DNA from: a virus
Lineage: Duplodnaviria; Heunggongvirae; Uroviricota; Caudoviricetes
Reading direction: 5' to 3' (one strand)
DNA length: 64,000 nucleotides
Virus record (IMG/VR): IMGVR_UViG_3300023179_004209
Span: 1 to 64,000 of that record
Part shown: positions 2,528 through 43,948 of the stretch, one piece after another
How the letters are laid out: each line of letters starts with the position of its first letter
Position numbering within the stretch: position 1 is the stretch's first letter
The notes under the pieces: generated by a model
Database searches by the model: none
Seen by the model: only the letters and a program-made list of their open reading frames with translations
Told to the model about the DNA's origin: nothing
Program-made: the position numbers and the translations under genes

Positions 2528-3247
2528 TTAGACGATAGTTTTGATAGGATGGTAATATCCAGATTTTGATGGATCAAATATAATTGAATCAATGTTCCAA
2601 TTAATATAAGATTCCGAATTCAAAAATGGTTTGTTTAATATATATCCAGATTGTTGTAATAGTGTTCCTAATCTTAATTCCGAAAACATATTGTCATATT
2701 GTCTTGGATTGTTAATCATTAATTTAACCATTGATGATAACACTGATCTAGTAAAAAATAAGCCAGATGTTGGTTTGACTCCACCAATATCAGGTATTAA
2801 TTTTTGAGAATCCGACAATTGTGTATACCAGTACCAATATTCTAAATTTTCTTTTTTAACAACATCGTGACTAAAATTGGACATTTTTAATGCATCACCA
2901 TAAAAATTTTCCAATGAACAATTACAATATGTATCCCATTCTATTATTAAATAAGTTGGTAAGTTTGGATATTTTAGATAAAAATCATATATCAACAAAT
3001 CCGCTTCACTCCAATATTCTTTTTCACATGTTTTATTTAAAATATTATTATTAGGATAAATTTCTTTTCTAGAAACAACATGAGATCCTTCAATTAAATT
3101 GTGATTCTCAAATCCTACAGTGAATATAACCTTATCTGGGTTATGTTTTTTGATTGTTTCATAATTTTTTATTGTTACATCATCATTTGTATAATGTAAA
3201 AATATTATACAAATACGATTTTTTAAAGTCATATTATTAAATATCAT
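2528..3247 (-). CDS. Putative glycosyltransferase-like protein (paralog of next gene)
   Basis: 239 aa; IIEWDT acidic motif after a hydrophobic strand, FSELRLGTL, terminal YYHPIK; glycan-cluster context. Confidence 0.45.
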   Translation of the reverse strand: MIFNNMTLKNRICIIFLHYTNDDVTIKNYETIKKHNPDKVIFTVGFENHNLIEGSHVVSRKEIYPNNNILNKTCEKEYWSEADLLIYDFYLKYPNLPTYLIIEWDTYCNCSLENFYGDALKMSNFSHDVVKKENLEYWYWYTQLSDSQKLIPDIGGVKPTSGLFFTRSVLSSMVKLMINNPRQYDNMFSELRLGTLLQQSGYILNKPFLNSESYINWNIDSIIFDPSKSGYYHPIKTIV

Positions 3248-3930
3248 TTAACTGGATGATAAAAGTATTCTTTTGTAAGATCTATTTTAATATCATTCGG
3301 AGTCCAACTAATATATTTTTCAATATCTTCTTTCCCTTTTTTAAGGATAGTAAATTGGTTAACTAATGTACCCCCTCTTATTTCAGACAACATTCCATCA
3401 TATAAGTATTTATTAGTAATAACTTCATTTACACATTTACTTAATATATGGTTTTTAAAATATATACATGTAGATTGTCCATAAGCATATAAAATTGGAA
3501 ATTTAGTGTTATATGGATTATGTTTTCTATATAATTTTACCCATTCCCAATCTTCTCTTGCAGGATTACAAATACGATTCCCAAAAAAATCAACATTTGT
3601 ATCAAAAAAAGATTCAATTGAAACATTACTATCAGTATCATATTCATAAAGAAAATATTCATCATAGTTTGGTTTTTGAATATATCCTTCGTATAAAAAT
3701 AAATCGGGATCAAACCAATCCAAATGATATTGCGGAACAAAATACTGTATATCTTTATTTGATGGATATTTTTCTTTATTTGTTACAATAGAATTTTCTA
3801 ATAATTCATATCCTTCAAACCCAATAGGAATTACATCCCAATTAGGATTTAATTTTTTAATTTTATTAAATCTATTAATAGTTAAATCATCTACTTTATG
3901 ATGGCTAAACAATATAAGTTTTTTATTCAT
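3244..3930 (-). CDS. Putative glycosyltransferase-like protein (paralog of previous gene)
   Basis: 228 aa; LYEYDT, LSEIRGGTL, terminal FYHPVK align with 2528..3247. Confidence 0.45.
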   Translation of the reverse strand: MNKKLILFSHHKVDDLTINRFNKIKKLNPNWDVIPIGFEGYELLENSIVTNKEKYPSNKDIQYFVPQYHLDWFDPDLFLYEGYIQKPNYDEYFLYEYDTDSNVSIESFFDTNVDFFGNRICNPAREDWEWVKLYRKHNPYNTKFPILYAYGQSTCIYFKNHILSKCVNEVITNKYLYDGMLSEIRGGTLVNQFTILKKGKEDIEKYISWTPNDIKIDLTKEYFYHPVK

Positions 3931-4472
3931 ATTTTAGCAATTAAAACATCATCATTTTCCCATCCATTTTCATAATAAAATTTATAAGATGGATTGATAT
4001 CTTTAAGTTTTTGTTCTATTTCTTCGATATAAATACCAACGCCCCATTCACATTGACGTTTAAATATTCTTAAGTCATCTATCATAATCGTATGATTTTT
4101 AATGTTGGATGATTTAATAATATCTAATTCATAAAGAATTGGACAGTCGTATTTTCCACGTATATCCGAATGCATATCAAAATGAGAATCTAACCAAAAT
4201 AAACATGGGTCGTTTAATTTATTAATTATGTTTGGTAATACATCTGTACTATCGCCAAAAAAAAGTTCTACTTGGTTCAGTTCTATTTCTTTTTGAAATT
4301 TATTTTGACATAAAATTTTATGTTGTGTAGATATATCAATCGTATAGATTTTATCAAAATTACACTGTAATGCTAATTCAACTGACCCACCCTTGTAAGT
4401 ACCAGTTTCTATAAAAATATTATAGTCACATTTATATTTATCAAATATATTTTTTGTAAGAGTTAAACTCAT
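3927..4472 (-). CDS. Class I SAM-dependent methyltransferase
   Basis: IFIETGTYKG motif I, GDS, LFWLDSH, IMIDD. Confidence 0.75.
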   Translation of the reverse strand: MSLTLTKNIFDKYKCDYNIFIETGTYKGGSVELALQCNFDKIYTIDISTQHKILCQNKFQKEIELNQVELFFGDSTDVLPNIINKLNDPCLFWLDSHFDMHSDIRGKYDCPILYELDIIKSSNIKNHTIMIDDLRIFKRQCEWGVGIYIEEIEQKLKDINPSYKFYYENGWENDDVLIAKI

Positions 4473-5347
4473 AAAATAAAATTAATCGTATTCAAAAATT
4501 TTTCTTTGTTTGTTTTGTTCACATGCAAAAAATATTGTCGTATCTTATCACAATTCTTTTTTTGAAATTCAAACAATTCCTCTTTATTGTTGAGTATTTC
4601 GTCAAAGTTAATTTTATCAACAAAATATCCTTGTCTGTATTTATAATATATTTTAGTATCCAGAAATTCATAACCAATTACTTTTTTATATACACCTTTT
4701 GTAGATATAAATTTTACTAATTTTGGATCTAGATATTCCATAAAAACAGGAATTTCACTACATATTACTAATTTACCACAACTCAATGCTTCCCACAAAT
4801 AATGTCCCCATCCTTCATATAAACTGCAACATATGTGAATATCATGAGAATTTAAATTTTCAACGACTTGATTTTCAGTTAAATATTCAATTTCAGAATC
4901 TAGTATCTTAATTGAGTTATATTTATTAACTAATTCTGTATTTTTTTGGACTGATTTTCCTTTGAAATGTAAAATGTTTCCTGTATTTTTTGGGAAAAAA
5001 TATCGATCAATACTAAAAAAACCAGTTTGGATAATTGATGGATGTTCCTTACTTAACAAGTCTTTAGCATATTTGGATTTAACAATTAAATGATCAAATT
5101 GTTTTAAAAACAAGATTTCATCGGGATTTAACCATTCTTCATTTATTACGAGAATATTTTTTTTGTTATTTGACAATTGATCTGCTTGAATATTCTGTAT
5201 GAAAATGCCTAAATCACTATTTCTATAGTTATTCTTTTTAGATATATCATATGCGATTACATCATACTCATGTAATACATTTTTGATAAGAATCGAATCA
5301 TTCACGACTCCTACACCATTATTCCAATAATATAAATTAATTTTCAT
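4469..5347 (-). CDS. GT-B (family 4-like) glycosyltransferase
   Basis: CCSLYEGWGHYLWEALSCGKLVICSEIP = GT4 EX7E motif. Confidence 0.8.
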   Translation of the reverse strand: MKINLYYWNNGVGVVNDSILIKNVLHEYDVIAYDISKKNNYRNSDLGIFIQNIQADQLSNNKKNILVINEEWLNPDEILFLKQFDHLIVKSKYAKDLLSKEHPSIIQTGFFSIDRYFFPKNTGNILHFKGKSVQKNTELVNKYNSIKILDSEIEYLTENQVVENLNSHDIHICCSLYEGWGHYLWEALSCGKLVICSEIPVFMEYLDPKLVKFISTKGVYKKVIGYEFLDTKIYYKYRQGYFVDKINFDEILNNKEELFEFQKKNCDKIRQYFLHVNKTNKEKFLNTINFIL

Positions 5348-6629
5348 TCATATTTACCCATTCTTTTCTATCATCATTCCAATAAACATATATTTTAATT
5401 TTATCTAAATAAACACAATCGGTTTCTCTTGCATTTTTTATTACTTTTTTAAAATGGTTGATTTTTACGTTATGTACTTCATCGTTATACCATACTTTTT
5501 TTATATCATCTGCCCAGTATTTTTTATATTCAGATTCTACTGTTTCTAATTGTGATATATCAAATCCTTGTTTTAATTTTAAAAGTGGACCAAAATCTAT
5601 TTCCATGTTTTGACCATTTAATTGGATTTCATTTACATATTTTTTAAAATCATTGTGTAATGGATGTGTCTTTTCTTGAATTGCTTTATCTTTCCATTCA
5701 TTTATGTAGGAATGTTCTCCCCATATTCTAAAATCAGGTTCAAATATTTGATATTGAACTTTATTACACTTGAACTTTTTAGCAAAACTAATAAAATCAG
5801 ATAGTTGTTGGTAATTGTCTTTTTGTATTACTGTACTTATACAAAAATGATCTAATTTAATATTATCTCGGATAAATGTTAAATTTTCAATTAATGTTTC
5901 AAATGAACCTCCTCTTCGAATTTTTTCATATACATCTTTTGTTGTAGCATCTATACTAACACTAATACATGTAACTTTACTACGGGTGTATTCACTTAAC
6001 TCATTCCAATATTTTTTAAGTAATATTCCATTTGTTAATATATTTATACCATTTAAATTCGGCGCATCAGACTCTTTTAAATTTATTAAAAAATTTCTAA
6101 ACGTAATACTAGCAAATGCATCTCCGGATGGTGTAACTGTTATACGTCGAGCAGTTTTTAGGTTTAATATAATTTCTTTTTGAAAATCATCAATCATTTT
6201 ACGTTCTTCTCCAACTGCATATATTAATTCGGGTCTACACGATGGACATGACAAATTGCATGAACGATCATATGCTAATTGATAATGAAGAGGATCATGT
6301 GAAACTATTGTTTTTTCGTGTTTGATATCATCAATAATTTCTGGCCACCAAGCCTTTTGTAATTCTGATTTGTGTAATACTTCGCTTGTTTTAGATTGTA
6401 ACATTGGACATGAATTTTCATTACAAAAACGAAAAGAACCGTCTAATATACTTTTTCTAAATTCTTGGGCAGGTTTATCATTCCAAATTTCTTTTAAAGA
6501 TTTCTTTTTTAAATTACCGAGTTTATAATTATTTACCCATGATGGACAACATCCCAATACATCTCCATTAGCCATAATTTGAGCTTCTGAAAATGGACGA
6601 ATGCATATATAATCTGAATATTTATTCAT
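5337..6629 (-). CDS. Radical SAM protein with N-terminal SPASM/twitch-like Cys domain
   Basis: N-terminal CIRPF...GDVLGCCP...LGNL...IWN...FCNENSCP, then CNLSCPSC (CxxxCxxC), LTNG, SVSIDA. Confidence 0.85.
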   Translation of the reverse strand: MNKYSDYICIRPFSEAQIMANGDVLGCCPSWVNNYKLGNLKKKSLKEIWNDKPAQEFRKSILDGSFRFCNENSCPMLQSKTSEVLHKSELQKAWWPEIIDDIKHEKTIVSHDPLHYQLAYDRSCNLSCPSCRPELIYAVGEERKMIDDFQKEIILNLKTARRITVTPSGDAFASITFRNFLINLKESDAPNLNGINILTNGILLKKYWNELSEYTRSKVTCISVSIDATTKDVYEKIRRGGSFETLIENLTFIRDNIKLDHFCISTVIQKDNYQQLSDFISFAKKFKCNKVQYQIFEPDFRIWGEHSYINEWKDKAIQEKTHPLHNDFKKYVNEIQLNGQNMEIDFGPLLKLKQGFDISQLETVESEYKKYWADDIKKVWYNDEVHNVKINHFKKVIKNARETDCVYLDKIKIYVYWNDDRKEWVNMNEN

Positions 6630-7243
6630 ATTTTGATGATTATAAGACTGTTATTTGTAATTTTAATTTCTTGATATGCTCTTTTTGAAATTGTATCGTC
6701 CGATAATTTATTAATGAAATTTAATAATATGTCAAAATCTTTTTCATTATATTTTACGTTTACGCCGTTATTATATGTAAAATCAGAAATTATACTTTTA
6801 TTATGTTTCGTGTCAAAACATTGTAAATCTTCTATTATATAGATACCTTGACTACTTACATATGGAAAAATAATATTAAATGATTCGATTGATTTGTCCA
6901 CTTCATGAGACGCATCATCAATTACAAGGTCTAAAGGATTATGTTTTGATAATATTTGATTTAATCTTGTTGCATCAGTTTGTGAAGATTGATACAAACT
7001 ACAATTATTAATTTGTCTATTACAACATTCTAAAGAAATATCAATTCCGATCAATTCTGTATCAGGCAAATACTCACGTAATGTTACGAGACCATTTCCA
7101 TAATATACACCAAGTTCCAATGCAGTTTTAATTTGTTTTAATTTAAAAATTGGTTCATAATAATCATGATATGTTTTAGTGCCAATTAGATTAATTGATC
7201 TATCCGATCCGTGTTTAAGTCCGATTTCTTGTAAGCTTTTCAT
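6626..7243 (-). CDS. Class I SAM-dependent (sugar O-)methyltransferase
   Basis: LELGVYYG, GIDI, DLVIDDASH, GIYIIED (MycE/TylE-like C-terminal domain). Confidence 0.8.
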   Translation of the reverse strand: MKSLQEIGLKHGSDRSINLIGTKTYHDYYEPIFKLKQIKTALELGVYYGNGLVTLREYLPDTELIGIDISLECCNRQINNCSLYQSSQTDATRLNQILSKHNPLDLVIDDASHEVDKSIESFNIIFPYVSSQGIYIIEDLQCFDTKHNKSIISDFTYNNGVNVKYNEKDFDILLNFINKLSDDTISKRAYQEIKITNNSLIIIKI

Positions 7244-7245
7244 AT

Positions 7246-8259
7246 TTAAATTTCGTCAAACATTGATTGTATTAATGTATTTGATTCATATTTTTGCATA
7301 AGTTTGTGATTAGGCCAAATTGAATATGTACTGTGAGATGTATGTATTAAATATTGACATTCAGATAATAAAAACATATCAATAAATGATTCTTGTAATA
7401 TTTGAATTTGTTTATTTACATGTGTACCCATAAGTGATAAATCGTCCTCTGGAAAATATTTTTGTAAACAAAAACTATTAGGGATGTTATTTAATATCAA
7501 TTCATTTATTTTTTGGTTATCACAACTAATAAAATATTTTGGATTGTTAATAGATATCTTTGATATTTTTTCTTTTATTGTATCAATTACTTCTCTTTCA
7601 CTTACCCAATGATCTGTGTCGTTTTTGTATTTTCTAAATGTTGGTTCTTTTTGTTTTACATTACCGTATCTCATATGAATGCCAACAATATTTTGATTTA
7701 AAAAATTCTTTTTGATAAAATCATCAATTTTATATTTAATATACGGCTGCATTTGAAAGAAATTTAAAAAATTTACATAATTAAATTCTTCTGTAAAGTT
7801 TGAAATTTTTCCTTCGATTAAGAATTTTGCATGTTGTATATTCGGGAAAATCTGATTGTGTTCATGTATACGTTGTTCAACGAATATATATTTACTGTTG
7901 TTTATATTTTTATCTATCGTTTCATATTCTTGTTGATTTAACTCGTCTGATATTTTATGCCATCTCGGATTGATGTTAAATACTTTAGATCTATCTATAT
8001 TCCAATAAACATCATCTACTTCGGGTAATATAAAATTTACACCATTCAATGATTGATTTGGTTGTATAAATAAAGAAGTAAATAGATTTACTGCATTAGT
8101 TTTCTTAACTTTCCAAAAATCATTATAATTGTAAATTATATTTCTCCAATCCAAAATTACGTCGCCATCATACATTCTAGCATAATAATAAGTTGCGGCT
8201 AAATTGCATAATAAATCTCCTAAACCTGACGGTCTATTTGTAATGAAATATTTTTTCAT
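7246..8259 (-). CDS. NodZ/GT23-GT11-like fucosyltransferase-fold glycosyltransferase
   Basis: SGLGDLL, VGIHMRYG, FISCD, DMFLLSECQYLI..S.STYS motifs. Confidence 0.75.
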   Translation of the reverse strand: MKKYFITNRPSGLGDLLCNLAATYYYARMYDGDVILDWRNIIYNYNDFWKVKKTNAVNLFTSLFIQPNQSLNGVNFILPEVDDVYWNIDRSKVFNINPRWHKISDELNQQEYETIDKNINNSKYIFVEQRIHEHNQIFPNIQHAKFLIEGKISNFTEEFNYVNFLNFFQMQPYIKYKIDDFIKKNFLNQNIVGIHMRYGNVKQKEPTFRKYKNDTDHWVSEREVIDTIKEKISKISINNPKYFISCDNQKINELILNNIPNSFCLQKYFPEDDLSLMGTHVNKQIQILQESFIDMFLLSECQYLIHTSHSTYSIWPNHKLMQKYESNTLIQSMFDEI

Positions 8260-9332
8260 GTTTTTATATATTCGGTCAAATTGCCAAAATCAATTTTATC
8301 ATAATTGAAATTTTGATTTATTTTTTCTACAAAATCCAAATGATTCACATGGTTTTTATCAAAAATGTTATGCTCTTTAAATTGTTCGTCTGTATAAGTT
8401 CCTCTTCCCCAATTTACAATTCTTGAAAGATAACAGTAAAAATTGTATTTTTTAGCTATATTTATAAACTTTTCTATTTCAGTATAGTTTTTATTCTGTA
8501 CAACGCAATCCAATCTTACAAATTTTAATTTGTTTTCTTTATACAAACTCGAAACAAATTCTAAATTTTTCATCAATTTAGTCCAATCTCCACCTCGTCT
8601 TGTATAATTATAACTTTCTTCTGTGCCGGCATCTAGACTTATAATTGCAGCAATGTGATTTTCATGCAATTTGTATAGTTTATTCCAATTCTCCTCAGTA
8701 AATAATACTCCGTTGGTTTGTAAATGGATTTTAATGTTACTATTAAGTTTTCCATCTATTGATTGTAAAAATTCCCAGAATAATTTACTTGCAAATGGAT
8801 CTCCAGAACCAGTAACATTCACTGTGATTGGTCGAGTACATTTATACAAGTAGTCTAATAATCTAACTTGAAATTGTCTTTTTAAATTATAATCTATTGG
8901 GTTAATTTTTTCGTTTAAAAACCAAAATGTAGGTCTACATGACGGACATTTTAAATTACAACTTACATCATAACATAGATTAATAAAATCTGCATTTTCA
9001 GAAATTAAAATGTTATCATTTATTATTTTTTTGTAATAGTCTCCGTGTTTTCCATCAATAATATCACTCTTATTAGGTAAAGATCCATTTTGGATCATTG
9101 GACATTCTGTTCGGTTACAATATTTAAAACTTCCATCCAAAATACTTTTTCTAAATTCTTTGGATTTTTCTCCGTTCCATATGTTTTCAAAATTGGTATC
9201 ATAATTCATTTTACCCAAATCATTATGATTTACCCAATTTGGACAACAATTGTATACCTTTAGTCCACCGTCATCGTGAATTTCTAAAAATTCCCACGGT
9301 CTTCCACAAAATTTTTTAGTTAAATCTATCAT
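8256..9332 (-). CDS. Radical SAM protein with N-terminal SPASM/twitch-like Cys domain (paralog of 5337..6629)
   Basis: CGRPW...CCPNW...IWN...FRKSILDGSFKYCNRTECP; CNLKCPSC; GSGDPFAS; QTNG. Confidence 0.85.
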   Translation of the reverse strand: MIDLTKKFCGRPWEFLEIHDDGGLKVYNCCPNWVNHNDLGKMNYDTNFENIWNGEKSKEFRKSILDGSFKYCNRTECPMIQNGSLPNKSDIIDGKHGDYYKKIINDNILISENADFINLCYDVSCNLKCPSCRPTFWFLNEKINPIDYNLKRQFQVRLLDYLYKCTRPITVNVTGSGDPFASKLFWEFLQSIDGKLNSNIKIHLQTNGVLFTEENWNKLYKLHENHIAAIISLDAGTEESYNYTRRGGDWTKLMKNLEFVSSLYKENKLKFVRLDCVVQNKNYTEIEKFINIAKKYNFYCYLSRIVNWGRGTYTDEQFKEHNIFDKNHVNHLDFVEKINQNFNYDKIDFGNLTEYIKT

Positions 9333-11947
9333 AATGATTGATATATCTCTGATTCTTTCAATTGTTGTTTAAAATATTCTATTGTTATTTGTTTTCTCTT
9401 ATCAAATGTCATTAAATATTGATGTGTATATTTGATTAGATCTATATTATTTAATTTTTCGTTGGCCTCTTTCAATGAATCAAAATAAAATGGATAATTT
9501 TCACCTAGATATTCGATTGTAGCTGGATGTTTATTAATTAATATTGGAGTACCTCTTGCAATACATTCTATTACAGCATTATTTGCACTGGTATCATACA
9601 AATCCAAAAACACAATATTTTTTGATAACAATATATCGTAATCATTGTTCTCTAAATGATCTATGATTTTTACAGAATCAATTTGTTTCTTACTTAATGT
9701 AATGTTATACAAATCTAATTCTATATTAGATAATCTTAATATAGTATCTTTACATTTATTGTTAGGCATCAATCTAATTTTTTCATATTGTCCACTATCC
9801 AACAAGAATATAGAATTTAATTTTCTCAACCACCATCCAATATTAACAACTTTTTTGTTTTTATTTTTATAAAAATCATCAAAACTAAATTTCAACTCGG
9901 GTATCTCGGTTGGATGATACAATACATTTACAGGAGTATGATGTAAATAATGTTTCAAAAATCTTTTATAATAATTTGACAAAACATATAATCCTTTACA
10001 GTTATTCAATGACTCTTTAAATAATTCATCATTAAGTAATGATTGTGGATATGAATTATTATCACTAAACCATAATGGCATATTTGGCGGATTGTGCAAA
10101 AATCCAATCCATGGTTCTCTATATGGTATTATATTATCCGCAATATATTGATTTTTACGCCAACTAAACGCATTTTCAATAAATCCGTCAAAGTAAACTC
10201 CTAGAGGATTATTAAAATCAGACATATTATGTACAACATAATCCCATCCAGATCTATGCGAATAAAAAGAAGTTTGTACTCCTAAATTAATTTTACCAGA
10301 AACATTATTATCTTTTATTCTTACAGTCATCTCACCATAATCGCCAACATATTCTGTTACTGATTTACCTCCAGCATTAATTTTTCTAATATTTTCATTG
10401 ATATAATTAATCTTATTAACAGGAATATTAACCTCTTTATTAGATGATGTAACTTTTATAGCATATAACTTACATGATAACTTTCTATTATCAGTAGAAA
10501 AATTTGTAGTTTTTGATGGTATAAAAAACCCACTTTCAATTACAATTTTATTTGTATTTTTTACCGAAATCTTAATACTCTGTTGACCTTCATTTAAATT
10601 AAATACAGATACTATTCCTTTATCGTTAATTACTTGGAATATATTGGATTGGATTAGATTTATGATATCTAATGTTATAAAATCAATATTTTCATTGATA
10701 TAAATTTCATTTTTATCACTCATCCATTTAAAATATACATTATTAGAAATTTCCAATGAATATAACCCTTCACCAAAATTGATTTTATCTTTATAATCTA
10801 TTTTTAATAATTTATTTAATAATGATATACAATGATCTTTATCTGCAATTGCCCACTTATATGTATCATCCAATCTAAATTGAAAAAATACGCTCTCATT
10901 TACTGATAATGGATTGAGTTTATAATCGACCAATCCTTCGTAATTTTTTCCTAAATATTCTGTATGTCCTCCATAACCAGTAATAATTATTTTTTTATTA
11001 TTATTAAATGCGTCAAATGAACCTAAACAAAATCCTTCTGTCTTTGTTAAATGAAAATAACAATCACCGATGTCATGCAAAGATTTAATCTCATCATAAT
11101 TTAAATTGTCTTTAATATAAATTATAGGAGCATGATCATATCTATTAGAAATTTTTATAATTTCATCTATACATTTTTGTTTTTCTTCTTCGGAATAGTT
11201 TAATTTAAATGTTTTTATAAATAATACAACATTATCTTTAGATGTAAATGCATTACAAAATGCATCAATTGTTTCAATTATGCCTTTTCTTTCAATTAAT
11301 TGACCAATACAATAAAATTTATATGATTTTTCTAAATTTAGTTTTTCTTCATTTTTACATAACATTATGCTTTTAGTTAATAAATGTTTTAACCCGGTCT
11401 TTTTATGTGGATAATCTATATAAACATGTGGTTCAACTATGATAGGTTTAATTACACCGTTATTAATGAAACATTGTTTATTCCACTCAGTGGGTACACT
11501 CACAAAGTCAACTATACTTGTATTAATTGCATCAACCCAAGATGGTAATAATTTTTCAAATTCCCAAACAGTTCTACCAATAATTGTTTTATTTTGTAAA
11601 TTAATATTTGGCGCATTTTTAATTACCTGTGTCCAAATATCAGGAGTAGAATGTACAATTATTGTATTATACTCAATATCTGATGTCGTATTTGCATTAA
11701 TATAATCGTGGAATCTATCTTTTTCGTTAACTTCATCATTACAATTAAAATACTGAGTTTTTACAGGTATCTTTTTACTAATATAATCGTAAATATATCC
11801 TTTAGCCGCATTAGCATATCCACTAGTACCATTCTGACAAATATATAATACAGATTTATCTTTATATGAAAACGAATTATCCATGATAACTTCTTTCTTT
11901 TTAAAGATATAACTATGTAGTAAATTAAATTTATCAGTAGAAACCAT
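9329..11947 (-). CDS. Multi-domain glycosyltransferase (GT4 domain + beta-rich linker + second GT-B-like domain)
   Basis: SGYANAA, TVWE, ERKG, TKTEGFCLGSFDA; C-terminal HRSGW...HPTE...SANNAVIECIARGTPILINK. Confidence 0.75.
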   Translation of the reverse strand: MVSTDKFNLLHSYIFKKKEVIMDNSFSYKDKSVLYICQNGTSGYANAAKGYIYDYISKKIPVKTQYFNCNDEVNEKDRFHDYINANTTSDIEYNTIIVHSTPDIWTQVIKNAPNINLQNKTIIGRTVWEFEKLLPSWVDAINTSIVDFVSVPTEWNKQCFINNGVIKPIIVEPHVYIDYPHKKTGLKHLLTKSIMLCKNEEKLNLEKSYKFYCIGQLIERKGIIETIDAFCNAFTSKDNVVLFIKTFKLNYSEEEKQKCIDEIIKISNRYDHAPIIYIKDNLNYDEIKSLHDIGDCYFHLTKTEGFCLGSFDAFNNNKKIIITGYGGHTEYLGKNYEGLVDYKLNPLSVNESVFFQFRLDDTYKWAIADKDHCISLLNKLLKIDYKDKINFGEGLYSLEISNNVYFKWMSDKNEIYINENIDFITLDIINLIQSNIFQVINDKGIVSVFNLNEGQQSIKISVKNTNKIVIESGFFIPSKTTNFSTDNRKLSCKLYAIKVTSSNKEVNIPVNKINYINENIRKINAGGKSVTEYVGDYGEMTVRIKDNNVSGKINLGVQTSFYSHRSGWDYVVHNMSDFNNPLGVYFDGFIENAFSWRKNQYIADNIIPYREPWIGFLHNPPNMPLWFSDNNSYPQSLLNDELFKESLNNCKGLYVLSNYYKRFLKHYLHHTPVNVLYHPTEIPELKFSFDDFYKNKNKKVVNIGWWLRKLNSIFLLDSGQYEKIRLMPNNKCKDTILRLSNIELDLYNITLSKKQIDSVKIIDHLENNDYDILLSKNIVFLDLYDTSANNAVIECIARGTPILINKHPATIEYLGENYPFYFDSLKEANEKLNNIDLIKYTHQYLMTFDKRKQITIEYFKQQLKESEIYQSL

Positions 11948-12897: not shown

Positions 12898-12906
12898 ATC
12901 TTTAAT

Positions 12907-12934
12907 AGTCTACCATACGAAATCCAAATGTCAA
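12907..12934 (-). promoter_or_regulatory. Sigma70-like promoter for clamp loader
   Basis: TTGACA-N16-TAGACT with TG extension, 9 nt before ATG. Confidence 0.6.
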
Positions 12935-12937
12935 CCA

Positions 12938-12972
12938 ACAAAAAACCCCGTATACTTTACAATATACGGGGT
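12938..12972 (-). terminator. Intrinsic terminator after sliding clamp
   Basis: ACCCCGTATA/TATACGGGGT stem followed by a T tract on the minus strand. Confidence 0.8.
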
Positions 12973-12990
12973 CACATTCATTAATAACTA

Positions 12991-13728: not shown

Positions 13729-13736
13729 ACTTCTTT

Positions 13737-13764
13737 AGTTTACTATATTTTTATGGTTTGTCTA
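13737..13764 (-). promoter_or_regulatory. Sigma70-like promoter for sliding clamp
   Basis: TAGACA-N16-TAAACT, 8 nt before ATG. Confidence 0.45.
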
Positions 13765-13768
13765 TTTT

Positions 13769-14185: not shown

Positions 14186-14190
14186 AACAA

Positions 14191-16725: not shown

Positions 16726-16727
16726 AA

Positions 16728-17686: not shown

Positions 17687-17709
17687 ATAGAATAAATAGT
17701 TGTTATAAA

Positions 17710-29849: not shown

Positions 29850-29854
29850 AATAT

Positions 29855-34366: not shown

Positions 34367-34391
34367 AATTTAACAATTAGTTATATTTAAA

Positions 34392-36898: not shown

Positions 36899-36933
36899 AC
36901 ATACAAAAGTAAAACTACATAAGTATATTGACT

Positions 36934-37542
36934 ATGATAAAAAACTATACTCCATCAGAATTAATATCATTTGAAGAAGACATTGCGGAACAGTTTAATA
37001 ATTCAAAAATAAAAGCGCCTATTCATTTGTATAACGGTAACGAATCACAAATGATTCAAATATTTGATGATATTAAAGAAGAAGATTGGGTTTTTTGTAC
37101 ATGGAGATCACATTATCAATGTTTGTTAAAGGGAGTACCACCAGAAACCGTTAAATCTGATATTCTCAAGGGCAAATCAATTACTTTGTGTTATCCAGAA
37201 TATAAAGTATATTCATCTGCAATTGTAACGGGAAATATTCCTATTGCAACTGGAGTAGCATTAGACATTAAAAGAAAAGGTTCCAATGAAAAGGTTTGGT
37301 GTTTCGTTGGTGACATGACATCTGAAACGGGTACCTTTTTTGAAAACTGGAAATATTCAGTGAATCATGATTTACCTATTACTTATATTATAGAAAATAA
37401 CGGTAAATCTGTTTGTACAGATACATTGAAAGTGTGGAATTGTGAAGAATTATTCTTTGCAAAAGAAACTCGTAAAATTAAATATTACAAATACGAAACA
37501 AAGTATCCTCACGCTGGCGCAGGCAAAAGAATTCAATTTTAA
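36934..37542 (+). CDS. TPP-dependent dehydrogenase E1 alpha-like subunit (short)
   Basis: PIHL..GNE, WRSH, SAIV.G, GD....G...E..N...ENN TPP motif. Confidence 0.8.
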   Translation: MIKNYTPSELISFEEDIAEQFNNSKIKAPIHLYNGNESQMIQIFDDIKEEDWVFCTWRSHYQCLLKGVPPETVKSDILKGKSITLCYPEYKVYSSAIVTGNIPIATGVALDIKRKGSNEKVWCFVGDMTSETGTFFENWKYSVNHDLPITYIIENNGKSVCTDTLKVWNCEELFFAKETRKIKYYKYETKYPHAGAGKRIQF

Positions 37543-37546
37543 TATT

Positions 37547-38083
37547 ATGAAATATTTCGACGAACTTAAAAAATCAATGGATTGGTTGGCAACTAAAGAA
37601 AACACTTTGTTTTTAGGTCAGGCAGTAGAATATGCCGGTACTGGTATGACAAATACATTAAAAGATGTAGATAGATCTAAGTTATTAGAAATGCCTGTCA
37701 ATGAAGATATGCAAATGGGTATGTCAATTGGAATGGCATTAAATGGTACAGTTCCTATTTCTATATATCCTAGATGGAATTTTCTATTACTAGCCGCAAA
37801 TCAATTGGTAAATCATTTGGATAAAATGAAAATTATGTCTGATGGAGGATATAAACCAAAAGTAATTATTAGAACATCAATTGGTTCTCAACGTCCATTA
37901 CATCCACAACATCAACATATCAGTGATTTTTCAGGAGGATTTAAAGCAATGTGTGATACAGTTGATATTATTCGATTGGATGAACCACATCAAATTTTTG
38001 AATCATTCCAATATGCTTATGAACGAACTGATAATAGATCCACTATCTTAGTTGAATGGGGTGATTATTACGGAGAAAAATAA
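37547..38083 (+). CDS. E1 beta/transketolase pyrimidine-binding subunit (lacks C-terminal domain)
   Basis: Start corrected to ATG 37547; LGQ, EMPV.E..QMG..IG.A, NQLVN, HPQHQH. Confidence 0.8.
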   Translation: MKYFDELKKSMDWLATKENTLFLGQAVEYAGTGMTNTLKDVDRSKLLEMPVNEDMQMGMSIGMALNGTVPISIYPRWNFLLLAANQLVNHLDKMKIMSDGGYKPKVIIRTSIGSQRPLHPQHQHISDFSGGFKAMCDTVDIIRLDEPHQIFESFQYAYERTDNRSTILVEWGDYYGEK

Positions 38084-38084
38084 C

Positions 38085-39047
38085 ATGACTATCGTTAAAT
38101 CGCCATTTAGAATATCATTATTTGGAGGATCTACCGATTATAAAGGATTTTATGAAAAATACGGGTCATTTATAATTGGTACAACTATTAATAAATATTG
38201 TTATCTTTCTATGAGGTATCGACCATCAATACTCTCAAAACAATATTTATGCACATATTCAAAGTATGAATTAGTGGATACTATAGAACAAATACAAAAT
38301 CCACTAATTAGAGCGACATTAAAATACTATAATGTAGATAAACCGATTGAATTTTTTTCATATTCAGACATTCCAGCAAGAACCGGACTAGGTGGTTCAT
38401 CAACATATTGCGTAGGAATGTCATATTTAATCCACAAACTCCAAAACAAACAAATAAATAAAAAAGAGATAATCAAATCTGCGATTAAAATAGAAAGAGA
38501 AATTCTCAATGAAAGTGGTGGCATTCAAGATCAAATTTGGCCTTTTGCAAAAGGTTTAAATTCCATAGAAATTGATAAAAACGGAGAATTTAGTATAAAA
38601 CCATTACCATTAACAGAAGAATTTTTAGTAGAATTACAGAAATCATTTACACTAATATATACTGACGAACAACGAAATACAGATCAAATTGCTAAATCTC
38701 ATGAAAATGATATAAACAATAAATTGAATATATTAGAATTAGCAAAAGAATCATACTCTGCATTCTTAAAAGAAGATATAAAATCAATAGGATGTTTGTT
38801 GTATCAAAGTTGGATCAATAAAGAAAAAATATCCCCATTAATTTCTAATAATAAAATAAAGCAAATAATCGATGATGTAATGTCAATGGGTGCATATGGT
38901 GCAAAATTATTAGGAAGCGGAGGATGTGGATTTGTGTTAGTTGTATCAGATCCTATTATAAAAACCAAAATACTTGAAAAATATAATGGTAATGTATTAG
39001 AATTCGATTTTGAAAAATCAGGAACATCTGAAATTTTTTCTAGTTAA
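38085..39047 (+). CDS. hddA: GHMP sugar kinase, D-glycero-D-manno-heptose 7-phosphate kinase-like
   Basis: PFRISLFGGSTD, IPARTGLGGSS, GGIQDQ, GAKLLGSGGCGF; start corrected to 38085. Confidence 0.8.
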   Translation: MTIVKSPFRISLFGGSTDYKGFYEKYGSFIIGTTINKYCYLSMRYRPSILSKQYLCTYSKYELVDTIEQIQNPLIRATLKYYNVDKPIEFFSYSDIPARTGLGGSSTYCVGMSYLIHKLQNKQINKKEIIKSAIKIEREILNESGGIQDQIWPFAKGLNSIEIDKNGEFSIKPLPLTEEFLVELQKSFTLIYTDEQRNTDQIAKSHENDINNKLNILELAKESYSAFLKEDIKSIGCLLYQSWINKEKISPLISNNKIKQIIDDVMSMGAYGAKLLGSGGCGFVLVVSDPIIKTKILEKYNGNVLEFDFEKSGTSEIFSS

Positions 39048-39050
39048 TAT

Positions 39051-39473
39051 ATGAAAATAGGAATAGTATCTGGGTATTTTAATCCCGTCCACTATGGACA
39101 TATCGAATACATCAATTCTGCAAAAGAAAACTGTGATAAATTAATTGCAGTCATCAATAGTGATTACCAACGTGAATTAAAAGGAACAAAAGAATTCATG
39201 GACGAAAATCACAGATCTAAAATTATATTTAATTTGAAATCAGTTGATGATGTATTTATTTCTGTTGACAAAGACAAAACTCAATGTCAGACTCTTAGAT
39301 ATTTAAAAAATAAATATAAAGAAGATCACTTGATATTTTTTAACAGTGGCGATAGAAAAGGTTCAAATTTAGTTACTGCAGAATCAGATGTATGTAAAGA
39401 AATTGGAATAGAAGAATCAATTCTTGATCTACCAAAAATATACTCGTCAAGTGAACTACTAAAAAAGTTATGA
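39051..39473 (+). CDS. Cytidylyltransferase-family nucleotidyltransferase
   Basis: SGYFNPVHYGH (HxGH), GDR, SSS. Confidence 0.85.
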   Translation: MKIGIVSGYFNPVHYGHIEYINSAKENCDKLIAVINSDYQRELKGTKEFMDENHRSKIIFNLKSVDDVFISVDKDKTQCQTLRYLKNKYKEDHLIFFNSGDRKGSNLVTAESDVCKEIGIEESILDLPKIYSSSELLKKL

Positions 39474-40645
39474 ATAATTTTTACTTACCATTAATGGAAG
39501 ACAATATTGACAGAGAAGATGTCAATACACTAATAAACTTTCTAAATCAAACACCAATACCAAAACTAACCAATGGACCAAAAGTAGTTGAATTTGAAAA
39601 TGCATGGGGTCAATGGTTGGGTACTAAATATAATTTGATGGTTAATAGTGGAGCTAGTGCAAATGAATTGACAATACTTGCATTAAATGAACTGTACGAA
39701 GACGGCGAAGTGATTTTACCGCCCCTAACATGGATATCAGATGTTTCGTCAGTAATATTTAGCGAATTTACACCTATATTTTGTGATATCAATCTAAAAA
39801 ATCTATCTTTTGATTTGGAAAAACTTAAGAAATTAATTACACCAAAAACAAGAGCAATATTTTTGACTCATGTTTTGGGAATCAATGGTCTCACAGACGA
39901 ACTATTAAACATTTGTAAAGAGAATAACATTCATCTAATTGAAGATGTATGCGAGTCTCACGGTACTACATTTAAAGGTAAAAAAGTAGGATCATATGGA
40001 TTTGTAAGCAATTTTAGTTTTTACTTCGCACATCATATGTCCACTATTGAAGGTGGTATGATTTGTACCAACGATGAAAGATTCTATCAAATTTGTAGAG
40101 CATTAAGATCACATGGTATGATTAGAGAAATGACGGATGAATCCATGAGAAATGAAATTATCTATAAAAATCCTGATCTCAACAAAGATTTCATTTTCTT
40201 ACGTCCATCTCATAACTTTAGAAGTACCGAACTTAATGCAGTGTTAGGATTGTCTCAGTTGAAAAAATTAGACAAAAATAACAAAAATAGAATAGACAAC
40301 TATAACTATTTTATGAGTAAATTAGATCCTTCCAAATATATTACTGACATAGAATTAGATGGACAATGTAATTATGCATTTACAGTAATCTTAAAAGATC
40401 CTTCTTTTGTTACTCGTCTAAATGTAGAATTGAGATTAAAAGAAGCCTGTATTGAATTTAGAAGAGGAATGTCCGGTGGAGGAAATCAACTTCGACAACC
40501 ATACATCAAAAAACATTTCAATATCAACTATGACGATTTTAAAGTAGTAGACCACGTTCATAACTTTAGTTGGTATATTGGCAATTATCCAGGTCTACAA
40601 AGAGAAAAAATTGATACTTTATTGAATGTATTAAATAATGTATGA
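39470..40645 (+). CDS. DegT/DnrJ-family PLP enzyme, ColD-like 3-dehydratase
   Basis: NSGASAN, EDVCESHG, FSFYFAHHMSTIEGG (His in place of the Schiff-base Lys). Confidence 0.82.
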   Translation: MNNFYLPLMEDNIDREDVNTLINFLNQTPIPKLTNGPKVVEFENAWGQWLGTKYNLMVNSGASANELTILALNELYEDGEVILPPLTWISDVSSVIFSEFTPIFCDINLKNLSFDLEKLKKLITPKTRAIFLTHVLGINGLTDELLNICKENNIHLIEDVCESHGTTFKGKKVGSYGFVSNFSFYFAHHMSTIEGGMICTNDERFYQICRALRSHGMIREMTDESMRNEIIYKNPDLNKDFIFLRPSHNFRSTELNAVLGLSQLKKLDKNNKNRIDNYNYFMSKLDPSKYITDIELDGQCNYAFTVILKDPSFVTRLNVELRLKEACIEFRRGMSGGGNQLRQPYIKKHFNINYDDFKVVDHVHNFSWYIGNYPGLQREKIDTLLNVLNNV

Positions 40646-41157
40646 ATTCTAAAATAAAAGAATGTAGTACTATTATCAATGATCTAATAGTAATTCAACC
40701 AGAGTCATTTTATGATCATAGAGGCGAAAACTTTGAAACATATAATGAAGAACATTATTCTAAAATATTCAAATCTGATTTGAAATTTGTTATAGATTCA
40801 TTTTCTAATTCAACCAAAAACGTTTTAAGGGGATTCCACGGAGATACAGATAATTGGAAATTAATTGATGTATTAAAAGGAAACGTGTATTTTGTAGTAA
40901 TTGATGTAAGACCTAATTCATCTACCTACAAAAATATACAATATTTCCAATTAAATGATAAAAATAGATATCAAGTTCTTGTTCCTGCTGGATGTGTAAA
41001 TGCACATTTAGTGACATCTGAAGACTGTTTATTTCATTACAAATTAACAAAAAGTTATGTTCCTATAGAAAAACAAATTCACATTAAGTGGAATGATCCC
41101 GAATATAATGTGTTTTGGCCAATTAACAATCCAATTCTTTCAAAAAGAGATAAATAA
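40642..41157 (+). CDS. rfbC: dTDP-4-dehydrorhamnose 3,5-epimerase
   Basis: D.RG, VLRGFH, D.RP.S.TY, VP.G..NAH, YK, W.DP. Confidence 0.88.
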   Translation: MNSKIKECSTIINDLIVIQPESFYDHRGENFETYNEEHYSKIFKSDLKFVIDSFSNSTKNVLRGFHGDTDNWKLIDVLKGNVYFVVIDVRPNSSTYKNIQYFQLNDKNRYQVLVPAGCVNAHLVTSEDCLFHYKLTKSYVPIEKQIHIKWNDPEYNVFWPINNPILSKRDK

Positions 41158-41165: not shown

Positions 41166-42782
41166 ATGTCAGAAGAAACATTTAATTTTAAAAAAGATAG
41201 ATTTCAAAAAATAATTGATAAAGACTGTATAGTAATCGATGTAGGCGCTCACATAGGATCTTTCTCAAAATTATTTGCAAAATGTGCAAAAAAAGTAATT
41301 GCATTTGAACCAAATAATTTTATCTTTCAAAGTCTAGAATCAAACTTAAAAAAAGAAAACTATTTAAATGTAGATACATATAACTTAGCATGTACCGAAG
41401 AAAATAAAAAGTACATATTCAATTATAGCGACCCTAAAATACATAAAGAAGGTTCTAATGGAGGATTCTTGACAAATTTGGAAAATAAAGGGTTTTGTAA
41501 ACATCATTCATATGAACAAGAAGTAAATGGTGTAAATTTATTAGATTTCATCGAAAAAAATTATAAATCTGACATTGATAATATCAAATTTATTAAAATT
41601 GATGCAGAAGGATATGATAAAGAAATATTAAAAACCATAATTCCTTTAATCAATAAAAATAAACCTGTTCTAATGGTAGAAGCATTTAGGTTCTTAACAG
41701 AATTAGAACTTGAAGATTATTTCAACGTCATAGATAAATTAGGATACAAAATATATGATATATCTCCATTAGACAATATCGTTGATTGTGCAGGACCATT
41801 AGATCAAGATGAATTTAAGTATTTTACATACAATGTATGTGATAATGGCAATTTCTTATGCGTACATAAAGATGACATCAAAAAATATAATTTGCCGGAT
41901 AAAGTAAAGGGTAAAACATGTGTTGTTGTTTTTGGTAGAAACGATGGTTATAAAGAAAAGGATCGTTTCAAAATTCATATTACCAAAATGTTGGAAACAT
42001 TTGATGAAGTAATTTATGTTGATTGGAATTCGGAAAAACAAAGTTTCTTATATGAGATCATCGATGAAATTCCTAAAACAGGAAGATTAAAACATTTTGT
42101 AATCGAACCAAAAATTGCTAAAATTTTAGAAAATTACGATCCAAATGCACAAGCATGTTCTACTGTATTTTCTTTTAATATAGGAATTAGAAGAACGGAT
42201 GCCGAATATATAGTTTTATCTACAACAGATATTATTCCTCCAACAAAAGAAATTCTTCAAGAATTTATTAAAAAAACAAATAAGCATACAATGTATGTTT
42301 TGAGTAGAAGAGATATTGAATATAAAGATGTAATTGATAATAAAAACAATATAAATGATTATATCGACTATTTAAATCATACAAGTAAACCGAGGTATTT
42401 TCCTGCAAAAGTAACTCCAAATGACAATTATAGTTTATTTAATTGTTGTGGCGACTTTCAATTTGCAACAAAAAATATTTGGTTAAAAGTTAGAGGATAC
42501 GAGGAAGAAATGAAATATGCATGTTTCGTTGATACAAATGTCCAGAAAAAATCTGTGTTATATGGATTTCAATTAAAAGATATATATGATATTCCTTTAT
42601 ATCATATGAGTCATACAGGAATGTCAAACGATGGAACTTCCCCCAGTAAAAAGTTTTACAATAATGCAATGGATTGGGTGGAATATTTCGATAAATATAT
42701 TATGCACGAACATATAATGATATCTAGAAACGAAGATTCATGGGGATTTTCAGAAACCGAAATCGAATACGAAATAATATGA
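41166..42782 (+). CDS. FkbM-family methyltransferase fused to GT-A-like domain
   Basis: IDVGAHIG, AFEP, IKIDAEG; C-terminal GRND.Y, VDWNS, NIGIRR, TTDII, GDFQ. Confidence 0.8.
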   Translation: MSEETFNFKKDRFQKIIDKDCIVIDVGAHIGSFSKLFAKCAKKVIAFEPNNFIFQSLESNLKKENYLNVDTYNLACTEENKKYIFNYSDPKIHKEGSNGGFLTNLENKGFCKHHSYEQEVNGVNLLDFIEKNYKSDIDNIKFIKIDAEGYDKEILKTIIPLINKNKPVLMVEAFRFLTELELEDYFNVIDKLGYKIYDISPLDNIVDCAGPLDQDEFKYFTYNVCDNGNFLCVHKDDIKKYNLPDKVKGKTCVVVFGRNDGYKEKDRFKIHITKMLETFDEVIYVDWNSEKQSFLYEIIDEIPKTGRLKHFVIEPKIAKILENYDPNAQACSTVFSFNIGIRRTDAEYIVLSTTDIIPPTKEILQEFIKKTNKHTMYVLSRRDIEYKDVIDNKNNINDYIDYLNHTSKPRYFPAKVTPNDNYSLFNCCGDFQFATKNIWLKVRGYEEEMKYACFVDTNVQKKSVLYGFQLKDIYDIPLYHMSHTGMSNDGTSPSKKFYNNAMDWVEYFDKYIMHEHIMISRNEDSWGFSETEIEYEII

Positions 42783-43948
42783 AAAATGTAATTATCGTAG
42801 GCGGCGGAATCGTTGGATTGGCCGTAGCATATAAACTATCTTCCAATAAAAATTTAAACATTATAGTATTAGAAAAAGAAAACGATCTAGGACAACATCA
42901 AAGTACTCACAATAGCGGTGTATTACACTGTGGTTTATACTATAAACCTGGTTCATTAAAAGCAATATTATCTGTCGAAGGCATTAAACAAATGACAGAA
43001 TTTTGTAAAAAATACAATATTCCACATGAAATATGCGGAAAATTAGTAGTGTCTACAAATCAAGAAGAATCCGTAAAATTAAATGAATTGTTTGAACGTG
43101 GAACAAAAAACGGATTAAAAAATCTTAGAAAATTAAACAAACAACAAATGCTTGAAATTGAACCAAATGTAGGAGGAATTGAAGCTCTACATGTTCCACA
43201 AGAAGGAATTGTTGATTATAAAAAAGTAATACAAAAATTATCAGAACTAATTACGAACAATGGACATACAATAAAATTAAACTCCAAAGTAATTAATATT
43301 ACTAAAGATAAAGTATTTGTTGAAAACGAACAATTTAATTACGACATTTTAATCAATTGTACAGGATTACATTCTGATAAAATCTCAAAATTCACTACTA
43401 AAATTAAATCAAAAATTGTTCCATTTAGAGGTGAGTATTATAAACTAAAACCAGAATCAGAACATTTAGTTAAAAATCTAATATATCCAGTGCCCGATCC
43501 TAAGTATCCATTCTTAGGGGTTCATTTTACTAGATTAATTAATGGAGGCATTGAAGCTGGTCCAAATGCAGTATTAGCATTCTCTAGAGAAGGATATTCG
43601 TTGTTCGATATAAATCTAATTGATATCTTTGATTATGTCACTTTTAAAGGATTTTGGAAATTTATATTCAAACACAAATACATGTGTTTTAAAGAATTAC
43701 ACCAATCGATCAGCAAAAAACAATTTGCCAAAGCATTACAAAAATTAGTACCAAATATTAAAGAAAACGATTTGATTAAAGGAGATGCAGGCGTAAGAGC
43801 CCAAGCAATGTCAAATACAGGAGAATTAATTCAAGATTTTGAAATAGTTATTAAAGATAATGTATGTAATGTTATAAACTGTCCAAGTCCAGCAGCAACA
43901 TCGTCTTTATCAATTGCAGATTATATCATCAAACAAATTAAATTATGA
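42779..43948 (+). CDS. lhgO: L-2-hydroxyglutarate oxidase-like FAD oxidoreductase
   Basis: GGGIVG, HQSTHNSGVLH.G.YY.PGSLKA, FRGEYY, YPVPDP.YPFLGVH, GPNA, SPAATSS; start corrected to 42779. Confidence 0.88.
   Translation: MKNVIIVGGGIVGLAVAYKLSSNKNLNIIVLEKENDLGQHQSTHNSGVLHCGLYYKPGSLKAILSVEGIKQMTEFCKKYNIPHEICGKLVVSTNQEESVKLNELFERGTKNGLKNLRKLNKQQMLEIEPNVGGIEALHVPQEGIVDYKKVIQKLSELITNNGHTIKLNSKVINITKDKVFVENEQFNYDILINCTGLHSDKISKFTTKIKSKIVPFRGEYYKLKPESEHLVKNLIYPVPDPKYPFLGVHFTRLINGGIEAGPNAVLAFSREGYSLFDINLIDIFDYVTFKGFWKFIFKHKYMCFKELHQSISKKQFAKALQKLVPNIKENDLIKGDAGVRAQAMSNTGELIQDFEIVIKDNVCNVINCPSPAATSSLSIADYIIKQIKL

Follow-up and report, generated by a model that had tools for sequence, protein, structure and literature searches.

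What does a bacteriophage do with some 35 sugar-related genes of its own and no recognizable means of moving their products across a membrane? The question is posed by IMG/VR record IMGVR_UViG_3300023179_004209, a genome of 295,831 bp rated complete by CheckV, of which bases 1-64000 were analysed (the window; positions refer to it unless prefixed with G000, which denotes coordinates on the whole record). Genes assigned by Pfam, NCBIfam and PHROGs scans form two sugar blocks, one of nine minus-strand genes (2528-11947), the other of 26 plus-strand genes (18920-43948). An earlier note, drawn from the sequence of the window, had described about 35 mostly coupled genes between 2528 and 43948 as one system, and the profile scans bear out both the number and the coupling: 35 of the 39 same-strand junctions overlap or are separated by no more than 15 nt. 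The span itself has to be trimmed: some 7 kb between the blocks is devoted to replication (clamp loader, PolB and nuclease; 11947-18652) and does not belong to the system. In addition, 20441-21148 encodes a dUTPase and 42740-43948 an L-2-hydroxyglutarate oxidase. Comparison across related phages, which the note had proposed, reveals a feature that it missed. The genes constitute a two-tier system, with a fixed core of glycosyltransferases (GTs) and AT-richer mosaic islands.

The record derives from a phage rather than from wrongly assembled host DNA, as indicated by its T4-type portal, Gp23-type capsid protein, 29 tRNA genes and replication genes. The window encodes PolB, gp44, a gp62-like protein, ribonucleotide reductase, a DnaB-type helicase, UvsX/RecA and gp32, as well as Mom, UvdE and a DruA-like protein. 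The nearest isolate by PolB is Microcystis phage Mel-JY01, with 45% identity. When 25 kb was compared by megablast with 50,697 phage records, no match at the DNA level emerged. Misassembly of a host-derived sugar block, which had been named as a possible objection, is excluded by the same backbone-flanked arrangement on more than 20 independent contigs.

Relatives were anchored on gp44 and on a 436-aa GT4; more than 40 related loci were fetched, together with two longer relatives. Gene order in the core is invariant in more than 20 uncultured relatives: nuclease, 76-aa ribbon-helix-helix-like protein, N-terminal half of a GT4, C-terminal half of the GT4, dUTPase, 436-aa GT4 and GT2. In the window, the PD-(D/E)XK nuclease (302 aa, Pfam) and the 76-aa protein (alignment judged by eye) occupy the operon head at 17744-18923 on the plus strand, and the conserved core follows on the same strand at 18920-23133 (Pfam, PHROGs), with the GT4 N-half (176 aa) at 18920-19450, the GT4 C-half (328 aa) at 19458-20444, the dUTPase (235 aa) at 20441-21148, the second GT4 (436 aa) at 21153-22463 and the GT2 (222 aa) at 22465-23133. 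The split of the first GT4 (18920-20444) into separate genes for the N- and C-terminal domains is seen in the lineage and in Mel-JY01; immuto-like phages have a single protein of 479-481 aa. On the minus strand, a tandem GT4 of 872 aa (9329-11947) begins with a start codon that overlaps the stop of the clamp-loader gene gp44, and is kept across the lineage yet divergent (45-87% identity). The backbone of the closest relatives is 88-98% identical; the core ranges from 47 to 97% identity in IMG/VR relatives, with the dUTPase going down to 28%. The core GT4 family comprises at least 8000 protein clusters in metagenomes.

The islands behave differently from the core. Among 19 loci, the genes between the GT2 and a 110-aa membrane protein come in at least 14 different orders. 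Its cassettes are patchily shared: relative L139 has the stretch 30232-35357 at 89-99% identity but lacks 25447-30232, the first cassette of the window is partly common to G002 and L137/L139 and missing in others, the second is 89-99% identical to that of L139, and the E1 alpha/beta pair of the third is 95-97% identical to that of L134. Island A (2528-9332, minus strand, eight genes), which lies behind the 872-aa GT, is likewise swapped among relatives, and other genes stand in its place in near-identical relatives. The GC content is 31.6% in the core, equal to that of the backbone, 25.6% in island A and 28.5% in island B, against 31.7% for the genome.

The membrane steps of glycan export appear to be missing throughout. 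The absence of Wzx/Wzy, GtrA and phosphoglycosyl transferase, which the earlier note reported for the window, extends to the whole genome: Bac_transf (PF02397), GtrA (PF04138) and Polysacc_synt/Wzx (PF01943) have zero matches in 296 kb under searches whose controls fire, and the genome-wide search for flippases and rmlA/rfbF that the note had suggested found none. A hydropathy screen of the 355 genome open reading frames (ORFs) revealed no protein with more than five transmembrane (TM) segments and no WecA-like multi-TM protein, and none of about 600 ORFs from 25 related loci has four or more TM segments. The sole 5-TM protein of the genome has no Pfam match and presumably is the tape measure, judging from its position after the tail chaperone. 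Other membrane proteins of the genome are a nucleotide cyclase (a 2-TM adenylate/guanylate cyclase, G000:273399-274838), a fatty-acid hydroxylase (G000:218678-219238) and small proteins. The sugar blocks contain no multi-TM protein by hydropathy, in line with the earlier impression that the enzymes are soluble, and the GT2, which weakly matches a GtrB-like PHROG family (E 1.9e-5), has zero TM segments. The only membrane protein linked to the sugar system is the conserved 110-aa protein at the end of block B (43945-44277, plus strand), with about three TM segments and a CPxC motif, as seen in hydropathy and in an alignment with relatives G001, G002 and L143. We considered it as a GtrA-like flippase and rejected it, as it has no GtrA match and only a weak match to DUF1360. 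With no genes for lipid-carrier priming, flipping, polymerisation or ligation, assembly of the glycan is likely to be cytoplasmic.

The core is not confined to uncultured phages. Two isolate groups alone in the collection of 50,697 phage records possess the core GT4; they are represented by Flavobacterium phage immuto and by Microcystis phage Mel-JY01. Both have the nuclease, two GT4s and the GT2 in the same order, followed by a small sugar island of their own, and in both the operon head of nuclease and 76-aa protein is syntenic, whereas the dUTPase is absent from the core; the identity of the core to that of the window is 31-59%. Identity to the cultured phages amounts to 55-59% in the N-terminal half of the split GT4; for Mel-JY01, PolB reaches 45% and gp44 42%. 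AlphaFold2 models of the two core GT4s have the GT-B fold (predicted local distance difference test scores, pLDDT, of 85 and 71), and in GT-B enzymes the N-terminal domain binds the acceptor. That this half is better conserved than PolB, across host phyla, suggests that the phage brings the acceptor along itself. The presence of the core in two cultured phages makes the acceptor question testable at the bench. The nucleosides of immuto DNA, resolved by liquid chromatography with ultraviolet and mass-spectrometric detection, consist of dA, dC, dT and fdPreQ1 only, with no sugar-bearing nucleoside among them (PMC10516641).

A strain-specific glycan on phage proteins is the likeliest reading of the locus, to which we give a probability of roughly 45%. 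It fits the missing membrane steps, the core shared across phyla and the diversifying pattern, the variety of island gene orders beside near-identical backbones being what diversifying selection on an exposed glycan might produce. The core operon from the nuclease to the GT2, with the ribbon-helix-helix protein at its head as a putative regulator, is a part of the phage backbone, and under this reading the core enzymes (split GT4, GT4 and GT2, together with the tandem GT4 behind gp44) would add the first sugars to an acceptor common to these phages. The two AT-rich mosaic islands would deliver strain-specific building blocks, by a predicted chemistry of 3-deoxygenation by E1/RfbH and ColD, two-carbon branching dependent on thiamine pyrophosphate (TPP), C- and O-methylation and epimerisation, and would supply the outer transferases of the GT4, NodZ-like and GT10-like types. 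The glycan would be assembled in the cytoplasm, probably on one or more virion surface or fibre proteins, and give each strain its own coat. The genes present, the solubility of their products, the division into core and islands and the lack of the known routes to a DNA acceptor are shown by the data; the acceptor, the identities of the sugars and the timing of expression are the parts of this scheme that we infer. Precedent exists in the capsid and tail glycans of mycobacteriophages, as cited in PMC12619734, and in the Xanthomonas jumbo myovirus XacN1, in which two virion glycoproteins were detected (PMC5852040). Tentatively, the reading might be widened to an abundant aquatic T4-like clade, with hosts from Bacteroidota to Cyanobacteria, that carries its own serotype locus, the core glycosylating a conserved virion protein and the islands varying the coat. 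Phage particles would then possess O-antigen-like surface diversity under diversifying selection.

Several observations weigh against a glycan on phage proteins. The main sugar operons lie within the replication module, behind sigma70-like promoters and with no late motif. The lineage has a late-promoter-like motif, TATTTATA, which is the reverse complement of the T4 motif TATAAATA; 52 of its 125 occurrences are oriented and located 3-30 nt before a start codon, against about 2 expected, mostly at structural genes, and this spacing implies very short leaders. The T4 late promoter TATAAATA itself was tried as the late motif of the lineage and shows no enrichment before genes. In the window, TATTTATA stands upstream of 47409-47789, 53178-53840 and 54914-55294, and none is placed before the starts in the sugar blocks. 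A sigma70-like promoter and a terminator lie upstream of gp44, and sigma70-like promoters precede the main sugar operons; these operon-head sites constitute weak evidence only, as a generic sigma70 scan gives 73 sites versus 74 in shuffles. Expression of the sugar operons thus looks early or middle. In favour of phage proteins, on the other hand, a further GT4 (G000:111680-112705) immediately follows the gene of a 1652-aa tail-fibre-like protein and shares with it a late operon headed by TATTTATA. The GT genes of mycobacteriophages reportedly adjoin structural genes. GT4, GT2, RfbH and RmlC proteins are typical O-antigen enzymes and are soluble or peripheral in bacteria too, so that a lipid-linked acceptor cannot be dismissed on the grounds of solubility; the operon, besides, ends with a small membrane protein that is conserved. 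Virion decoration is a prediction for this phage and its relatives alike, and no acceptor motif was recognized.

Structural comparison belongs to the same side of the balance in part. In Foldseek searches, the chlorovirus NY-2A GT 3OY2 is the closest solved structure for one of the core GT4 models and the second for the other, and giant-virus GTs are among the best BFVD matches; the rank of 3OY2 makes the analogy with giant viruses, drawn in the earlier note, an apt one. The neighbours that follow 3OY2 are BshA, MshA, PimB', PglA and WaaG, enzymes of small molecules or lipid-linked sugars. The fold neighbours were discarded as a guide to the acceptor, since only generic GT4 enzymes were returned. 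The best PDB sequence match of the GT2 is GmaR (E 4e-6), the cytoplasmic flagellin O-GlcNAc transferase of Listeria; the GmaR and 3OY2 matches are weak leads in favour of phage proteins. Two candidate acceptors were considered among the phage proteins. A head-module protein (G000:141237-142919) contains a mucin-like linker of about 65 residues rich in Ser, Thr and Pro, whose composition is kept and whose length varies among relatives; its case as a surface acceptor is weakened by an N-terminal leader that is a putative capsid-targeting signal and would make it an internal head protein. The 76-aa ORF was rejected as a carrier or acceptor peptide, its alignment by eye resembling a ribbon-helix-helix DNA binder.

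Instead of the virion, the glycan might be destined for the host envelope, with phage GTs extending a host polyprenol-pyrophosphate primer, for example undecaprenyl-pyrophosphate-linked GlcNAc (Und-PP-GlcNAc), at the inner membrane face and the host Wzx, WaaL or ABC machinery exporting the product, to the effect of a superinfection block or of altered grazing or progeny adsorption. This is the standard interpretation of the 'LPS/cell-wall' (lipopolysaccharide) sets of large cyanomyoviruses (PMC12801897) and pelagimyophages (PMC7029224). The enzyme families of O-antigen loci, the early or middle appearance of expression, the small membrane protein at the operon end and the resemblance of the hypervariable mosaic to bacterial serotype loci all speak for it. 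Bacterial loci, however, normally carry a matched Wzx/Wzy or Wzm/Wzt, whereas priming transferase, flippase, polymerase and ligase are absent from the 296 kb and from the 25 related loci. Phages of Bacteroidota and of Cyanobacteria have the core GTs in common, above all the half that binds the acceptor, despite the differing envelope glycans of these hosts, and the island genes look phage-adapted: a 306-aa family falls into virus-only clusters (Atlas), RfbH barely exceeds its model cut-off, and island GC is below that of the backbone. We regard envelope remodelling as rather unlikely. A soluble product or a non-virion acceptor, such as a free oligosaccharide, a glycosylated small molecule or a universal host protein modified during takeover, seems distinctly improbable. 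E1 alpha/beta, B12 radical SAM C-methylases, DegT, RmlC and FkbM proteins are also typical of the tailoring of oligosaccharide antibiotics, BshA and MshA, which act on small molecules, are among the solved GT4s nearest to the models, and a universal acceptor would likewise account for the conservation of the core across phyla. Genes for an aglycone or scaffold and for an exporter are nevertheless missing, a target inside the cell would give little reason for hypervariability, and the late-operon GT beside the fibre gene suggests structural proteins.

The earlier note also allowed for DNA as the target, and the GTs might indeed glycosylate phage DNA against restriction, as in T4 or in methyltransferase/TET-dependent clusters (Pyle et al.). 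The cluster lies among replication genes and adjoins a PD-(D/E)XK nuclease, a dUTPase and a deoxynucleoside-monophosphate-kinase-like gene, its promoters are of the early type, and the phage already devotes a gene, Mom, to DNA modification. Phage GTs related to LPS enzymes are able to write up to trisaccharides on 5-hydroxymethylcytosine (10.1101/2023.12.21.572611). The complete genome, however, has no match to profiles for a Thymidylat_synt-type hydroxymethylase (PF00303), ThyX (PF02511), Tet_JBP (PF12851, searched without a positive control), C5-methyltransferase (PF00145), TGT/DpdA (PF01702) or QueC (PF06508). Some ten GT domains with branched, methylated dideoxy sugars go far beyond known DNA glycans. 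Since the acceptor-base enzymes are absent, immuto has a homologous core and sugar-free nucleosides, and the dUTPase is not a member of the core in immuto or Mel-JY01, DNA as the acceptor is very hard to credit, and a glycan on phage proteins remains the preferred reading.

The composition of the islands indicates what kind of sugars might be made. Cassette 1 of island B (23183-31140, plus strand, NCBIfam) encodes RfbH/E1, a 4,6-dehydratase, a TPP enzyme similar to acetolactate synthase or YerE, two HpcH-fold proteins, an LdpA-like Fe-S protein, a HAD phosphatase and a short-chain dehydrogenase/reductase (SDR), and is a candidate pathway for a branched 3,6-dideoxyhexose, as far as its gene content can tell. 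RfbH reaches 462 bits with the equivalog model NF011936 (NCBIfam), whose cut-off is 423, has His at the position of the pyridoxal-phosphate (PLP) lysine in the motif SFYPAHH, and contains cysteines 243, 245 and 258. The 598-aa TPP enzyme, a candidate YerE-type branching enzyme, matches acetolactate synthase models only below their cut-offs. An AscD-type E3 reductase was not found in the pathway, and the LdpA-like Fe-S protein fills that operon position. Cassette 3 (35360-41157, plus strand; Pfam, NCBIfam) comprises a radical SAM protein with a B12-binding domain (35360-36898), trimmed E1 alpha and beta subunits, an HddA-like kinase, a small nucleotidyltransferase similar to RfaE domain II, a ColD-type DegT protein and an RmlC-like epimerase. 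The ColD-type protein has the motif SFYFAHH and no Fe-S cysteine insert. As both DegT proteins have His in place of Lys, and the E1 cysteine cluster is present in one and missing in the other as in ColD, they represent two distinct 3-deoxygenation systems. The trimmed E1 alpha/beta pair is predicted to perform a TPP-dependent two-carbon transfer. The tailoring set counts three SDRs in total.

A profile search of the whole genome found no NTP_transferase of the RmlA, RfbF or ManC type. The first hexose linked to a nucleoside diphosphate (NDP) must therefore come from the host, or else from the HddA-like kinase acting with the small nucleotidyltransferase, and the pathway seems not to be fully autonomous; of the autonomous, giant-virus-style pathway that had been proposed for the locus, the analogy is apt and the autonomy overstated. 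Whatever the acceptor, the islands are a source of odd sugar chemistry, with two 3-deoxygenation systems, an Fe-S stand-in for E3, trimmed E1 alpha/beta subunits and permuted SPASM radical SAM enzymes.

The remaining genes of the islands are more heterogeneous. Island A was assigned by Pfam and contains, on the minus strand, a GT4 of 292 aa (4469-5347), a SPASM radical SAM protein of 430 aa (5337-6629), a methyltransferase-like protein of 205 aa that is below threshold (6626-7243), a NodZ-like GT23 of 337 aa (7246-8259, 76 bits), a second SPASM radical SAM protein of 358 aa (8256-9332), two paralogous proteins of 239 and 228 aa without assignment and a further 181-aa protein without assignment. 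The two radical SAM enzymes are paralogous, and their SPASM-type cysteine domain (residues 9-77) is N-terminal to the CxxxCxxC core (124-131), the inverse of the usual domain order. In the adjacent 872-aa GT, Pfam recognizes a GT4 domain at residues 201-340, and the C-terminal half is GT4-like by Atlas features. Cassette 2 of island B (31130-35357, plus strand, Pfam) consists of the phage-specific 306-aa family, a GT10-like protein of 291 aa (32047-32922; 25 bits, barely above the cut-off), a short, 168-aa member of the superfamily of purine nucleoside phosphorylases and methylthioadenosine nucleosidases (PNP/MTAN; 32919-33425), a 314-aa SDR and a 321-aa protein without assignment. The 168-aa protein may serve to remove 5'-deoxyadenosine or S-adenosylhomocysteine (SAH) left by the radical SAM and methyltransferase reactions. 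Cassette 3 is followed by an FkbM-type methyltransferase (41166-42782, plus strand) that has a C-terminal part of 340 aa lacking assignment. Pfam searches at E values up to 0.5 gave no match for six unassigned island proteins, nor for the C-terminal regions of the FkbM protein and the 872-aa GT.

About ten GT domains were recovered altogether, somewhat fewer than the dozen GT or GT-like domains counted earlier, and the families named then were upheld: four GT4s, of which one is tandem and one split, a GT2, a NodZ-like and a GT10-like enzyme. Phage-specific candidate families may raise this total, and the 306-aa family may be one such GT. The three radical SAM enzymes of the earlier count were likewise recovered; of its three methyltransferases two stand, and the third is probably the B12 radical SAM enzyme.

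The L-2-hydroxyglutarate oxidase (42740-43948, plus strand) matches its equivalog model with 502 bits and is no obvious sugar enzyme. Translational coupling joins its gene to the last part of the sugar island, relatives lack it, and a candidate role in the pathway is uncertain. It was also tried as a clue to the host and is uninformative in this respect, as its nearest cellular relatives share no more than 46-55% identity with it and come from Acidobacteriota, Bacteroidota, Verrucomicrobiota and Bacillota alike.

Some features outside the sugar blocks deserve mention. A match to DruA of the Druantia defence system is located at 47809-48990 (E 3e-22) and is 76-77% conserved in relatives. The Mom-family protein lies at 53859-54641 (E 3e-42), making adenine modification of the DNA likely, and deazaguanine genes are absent, unlike in immuto. 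ARAGORN identifies, within the block of 29 tRNA genes, a tRNA with the four-base anticodon ctct (G000:201001-201076), and it also reports a pair of long tRNA-Ile(tat) genes (92-93 nt).

If virions indeed carry the glycan, about 12% of the genome would serve to build strain-specific coats in tailed phages that infect Gram-negative bacteria and cyanobacteria, with consequences for adsorption, stability, grazing, recognition by host defences and phage reagents. A reinterpretation would also be called for in large myoviruses of marine and fresh waters, where 'LPS genes' have since 2005 been credited with remodelling the host surface.

Among known systems, O-antigen and capsule loci share with this one the conserved flanks and the mosaic, hypervariable, low-GC centre. 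Loci for CDP-3,6-dideoxyhexoses and yersiniose in particular have the same RfbH/E1, 4,6-dehydratase, SDRs, RmlC and GT2/GT4 proteins, and a YerE enzyme to which the TPP enzyme here may correspond. Unlike O-antigen loci, the phage has no RfbF, AscD-type E3, Wzx/Wzy, Wzm/Wzt, priming transferase or ligase, and it differs from serotype-converting Gtr systems by lacking GtrA and a membrane-bound GtrB or GtrC. The T4 alpha- and beta-glucosyltransferases and the methyltransferase/TET-dependent clusters resemble it in having GT-B enzymes in early genes near replication; in contrast to phage DNA glycosylation, no route to a hydroxymethyl acceptor was found here, and a cultured relative that bears the core has no glycosylated nucleoside. 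Chloroviruses, with their capsid glycans, and Megavirinae, with their fibril glycans, combine soluble GTs with their own NDP-sugar pathways for rare sugars of bacterial type, and their gene content is clade-specific, as is the case here. Differences from these giant viruses include the bacterial host, the lack of orthology at the sequence level and the lack of a first nucleotidylyltransferase of the RmlA/RfbF type.

In the virion glycosylation of mycobacteriophages, GTs are accompanied by methyltransferases and modify phage structural proteins in the cytoplasm. Mycobacteriophages Che8, Corndog and Myrna (Freeman et al. 2023, cited in PMC12619734) and XacN1 (PMC5852040) resemble the present phage in encoding soluble GTs with no export genes. 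Those systems have two to four genes beside structural genes and draw on host sugar pools, whereas here about 35 genes, with rare-sugar synthesis of their own, lie mostly in early-type operons; the GT4 in the late fibre operon is the part that follows the mycobacteriophage pattern.

The closest parallels in scale are the cyanomyoviruses P-SSM2, S-SCSM1 and S-SCSM2R and the pelagimyophages, which are T4-like, exceed 200 kb and carry at least 20 glycan genes (PMC12801897, PMC7029224). Their sets also feature numerous GTs together with epimerases of NDP-sugars, RmlC and a small cytidylyltransferase, with a target that is predicted only; S-SCSM2R additionally carries Mom (PMC12801897). A homologue of the core GT4 is undetectable in either group within the 50,697-record collection, and their genes are placed in the tail-fibre cluster, as opposed to the replication module here. 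Large glycan gene sets in T4-like aquatic phages, including large cyanomyoviruses, were thus already known. The parts of the two accounts drawn on here mention neither a conserved core with mosaic islands nor conservation across phyla, and what the present locus adds is the two-tier structure, its extension to isolates whose hosts belong to two phyla, and an argument against DNA as the acceptor that draws on the published immuto nucleosides.

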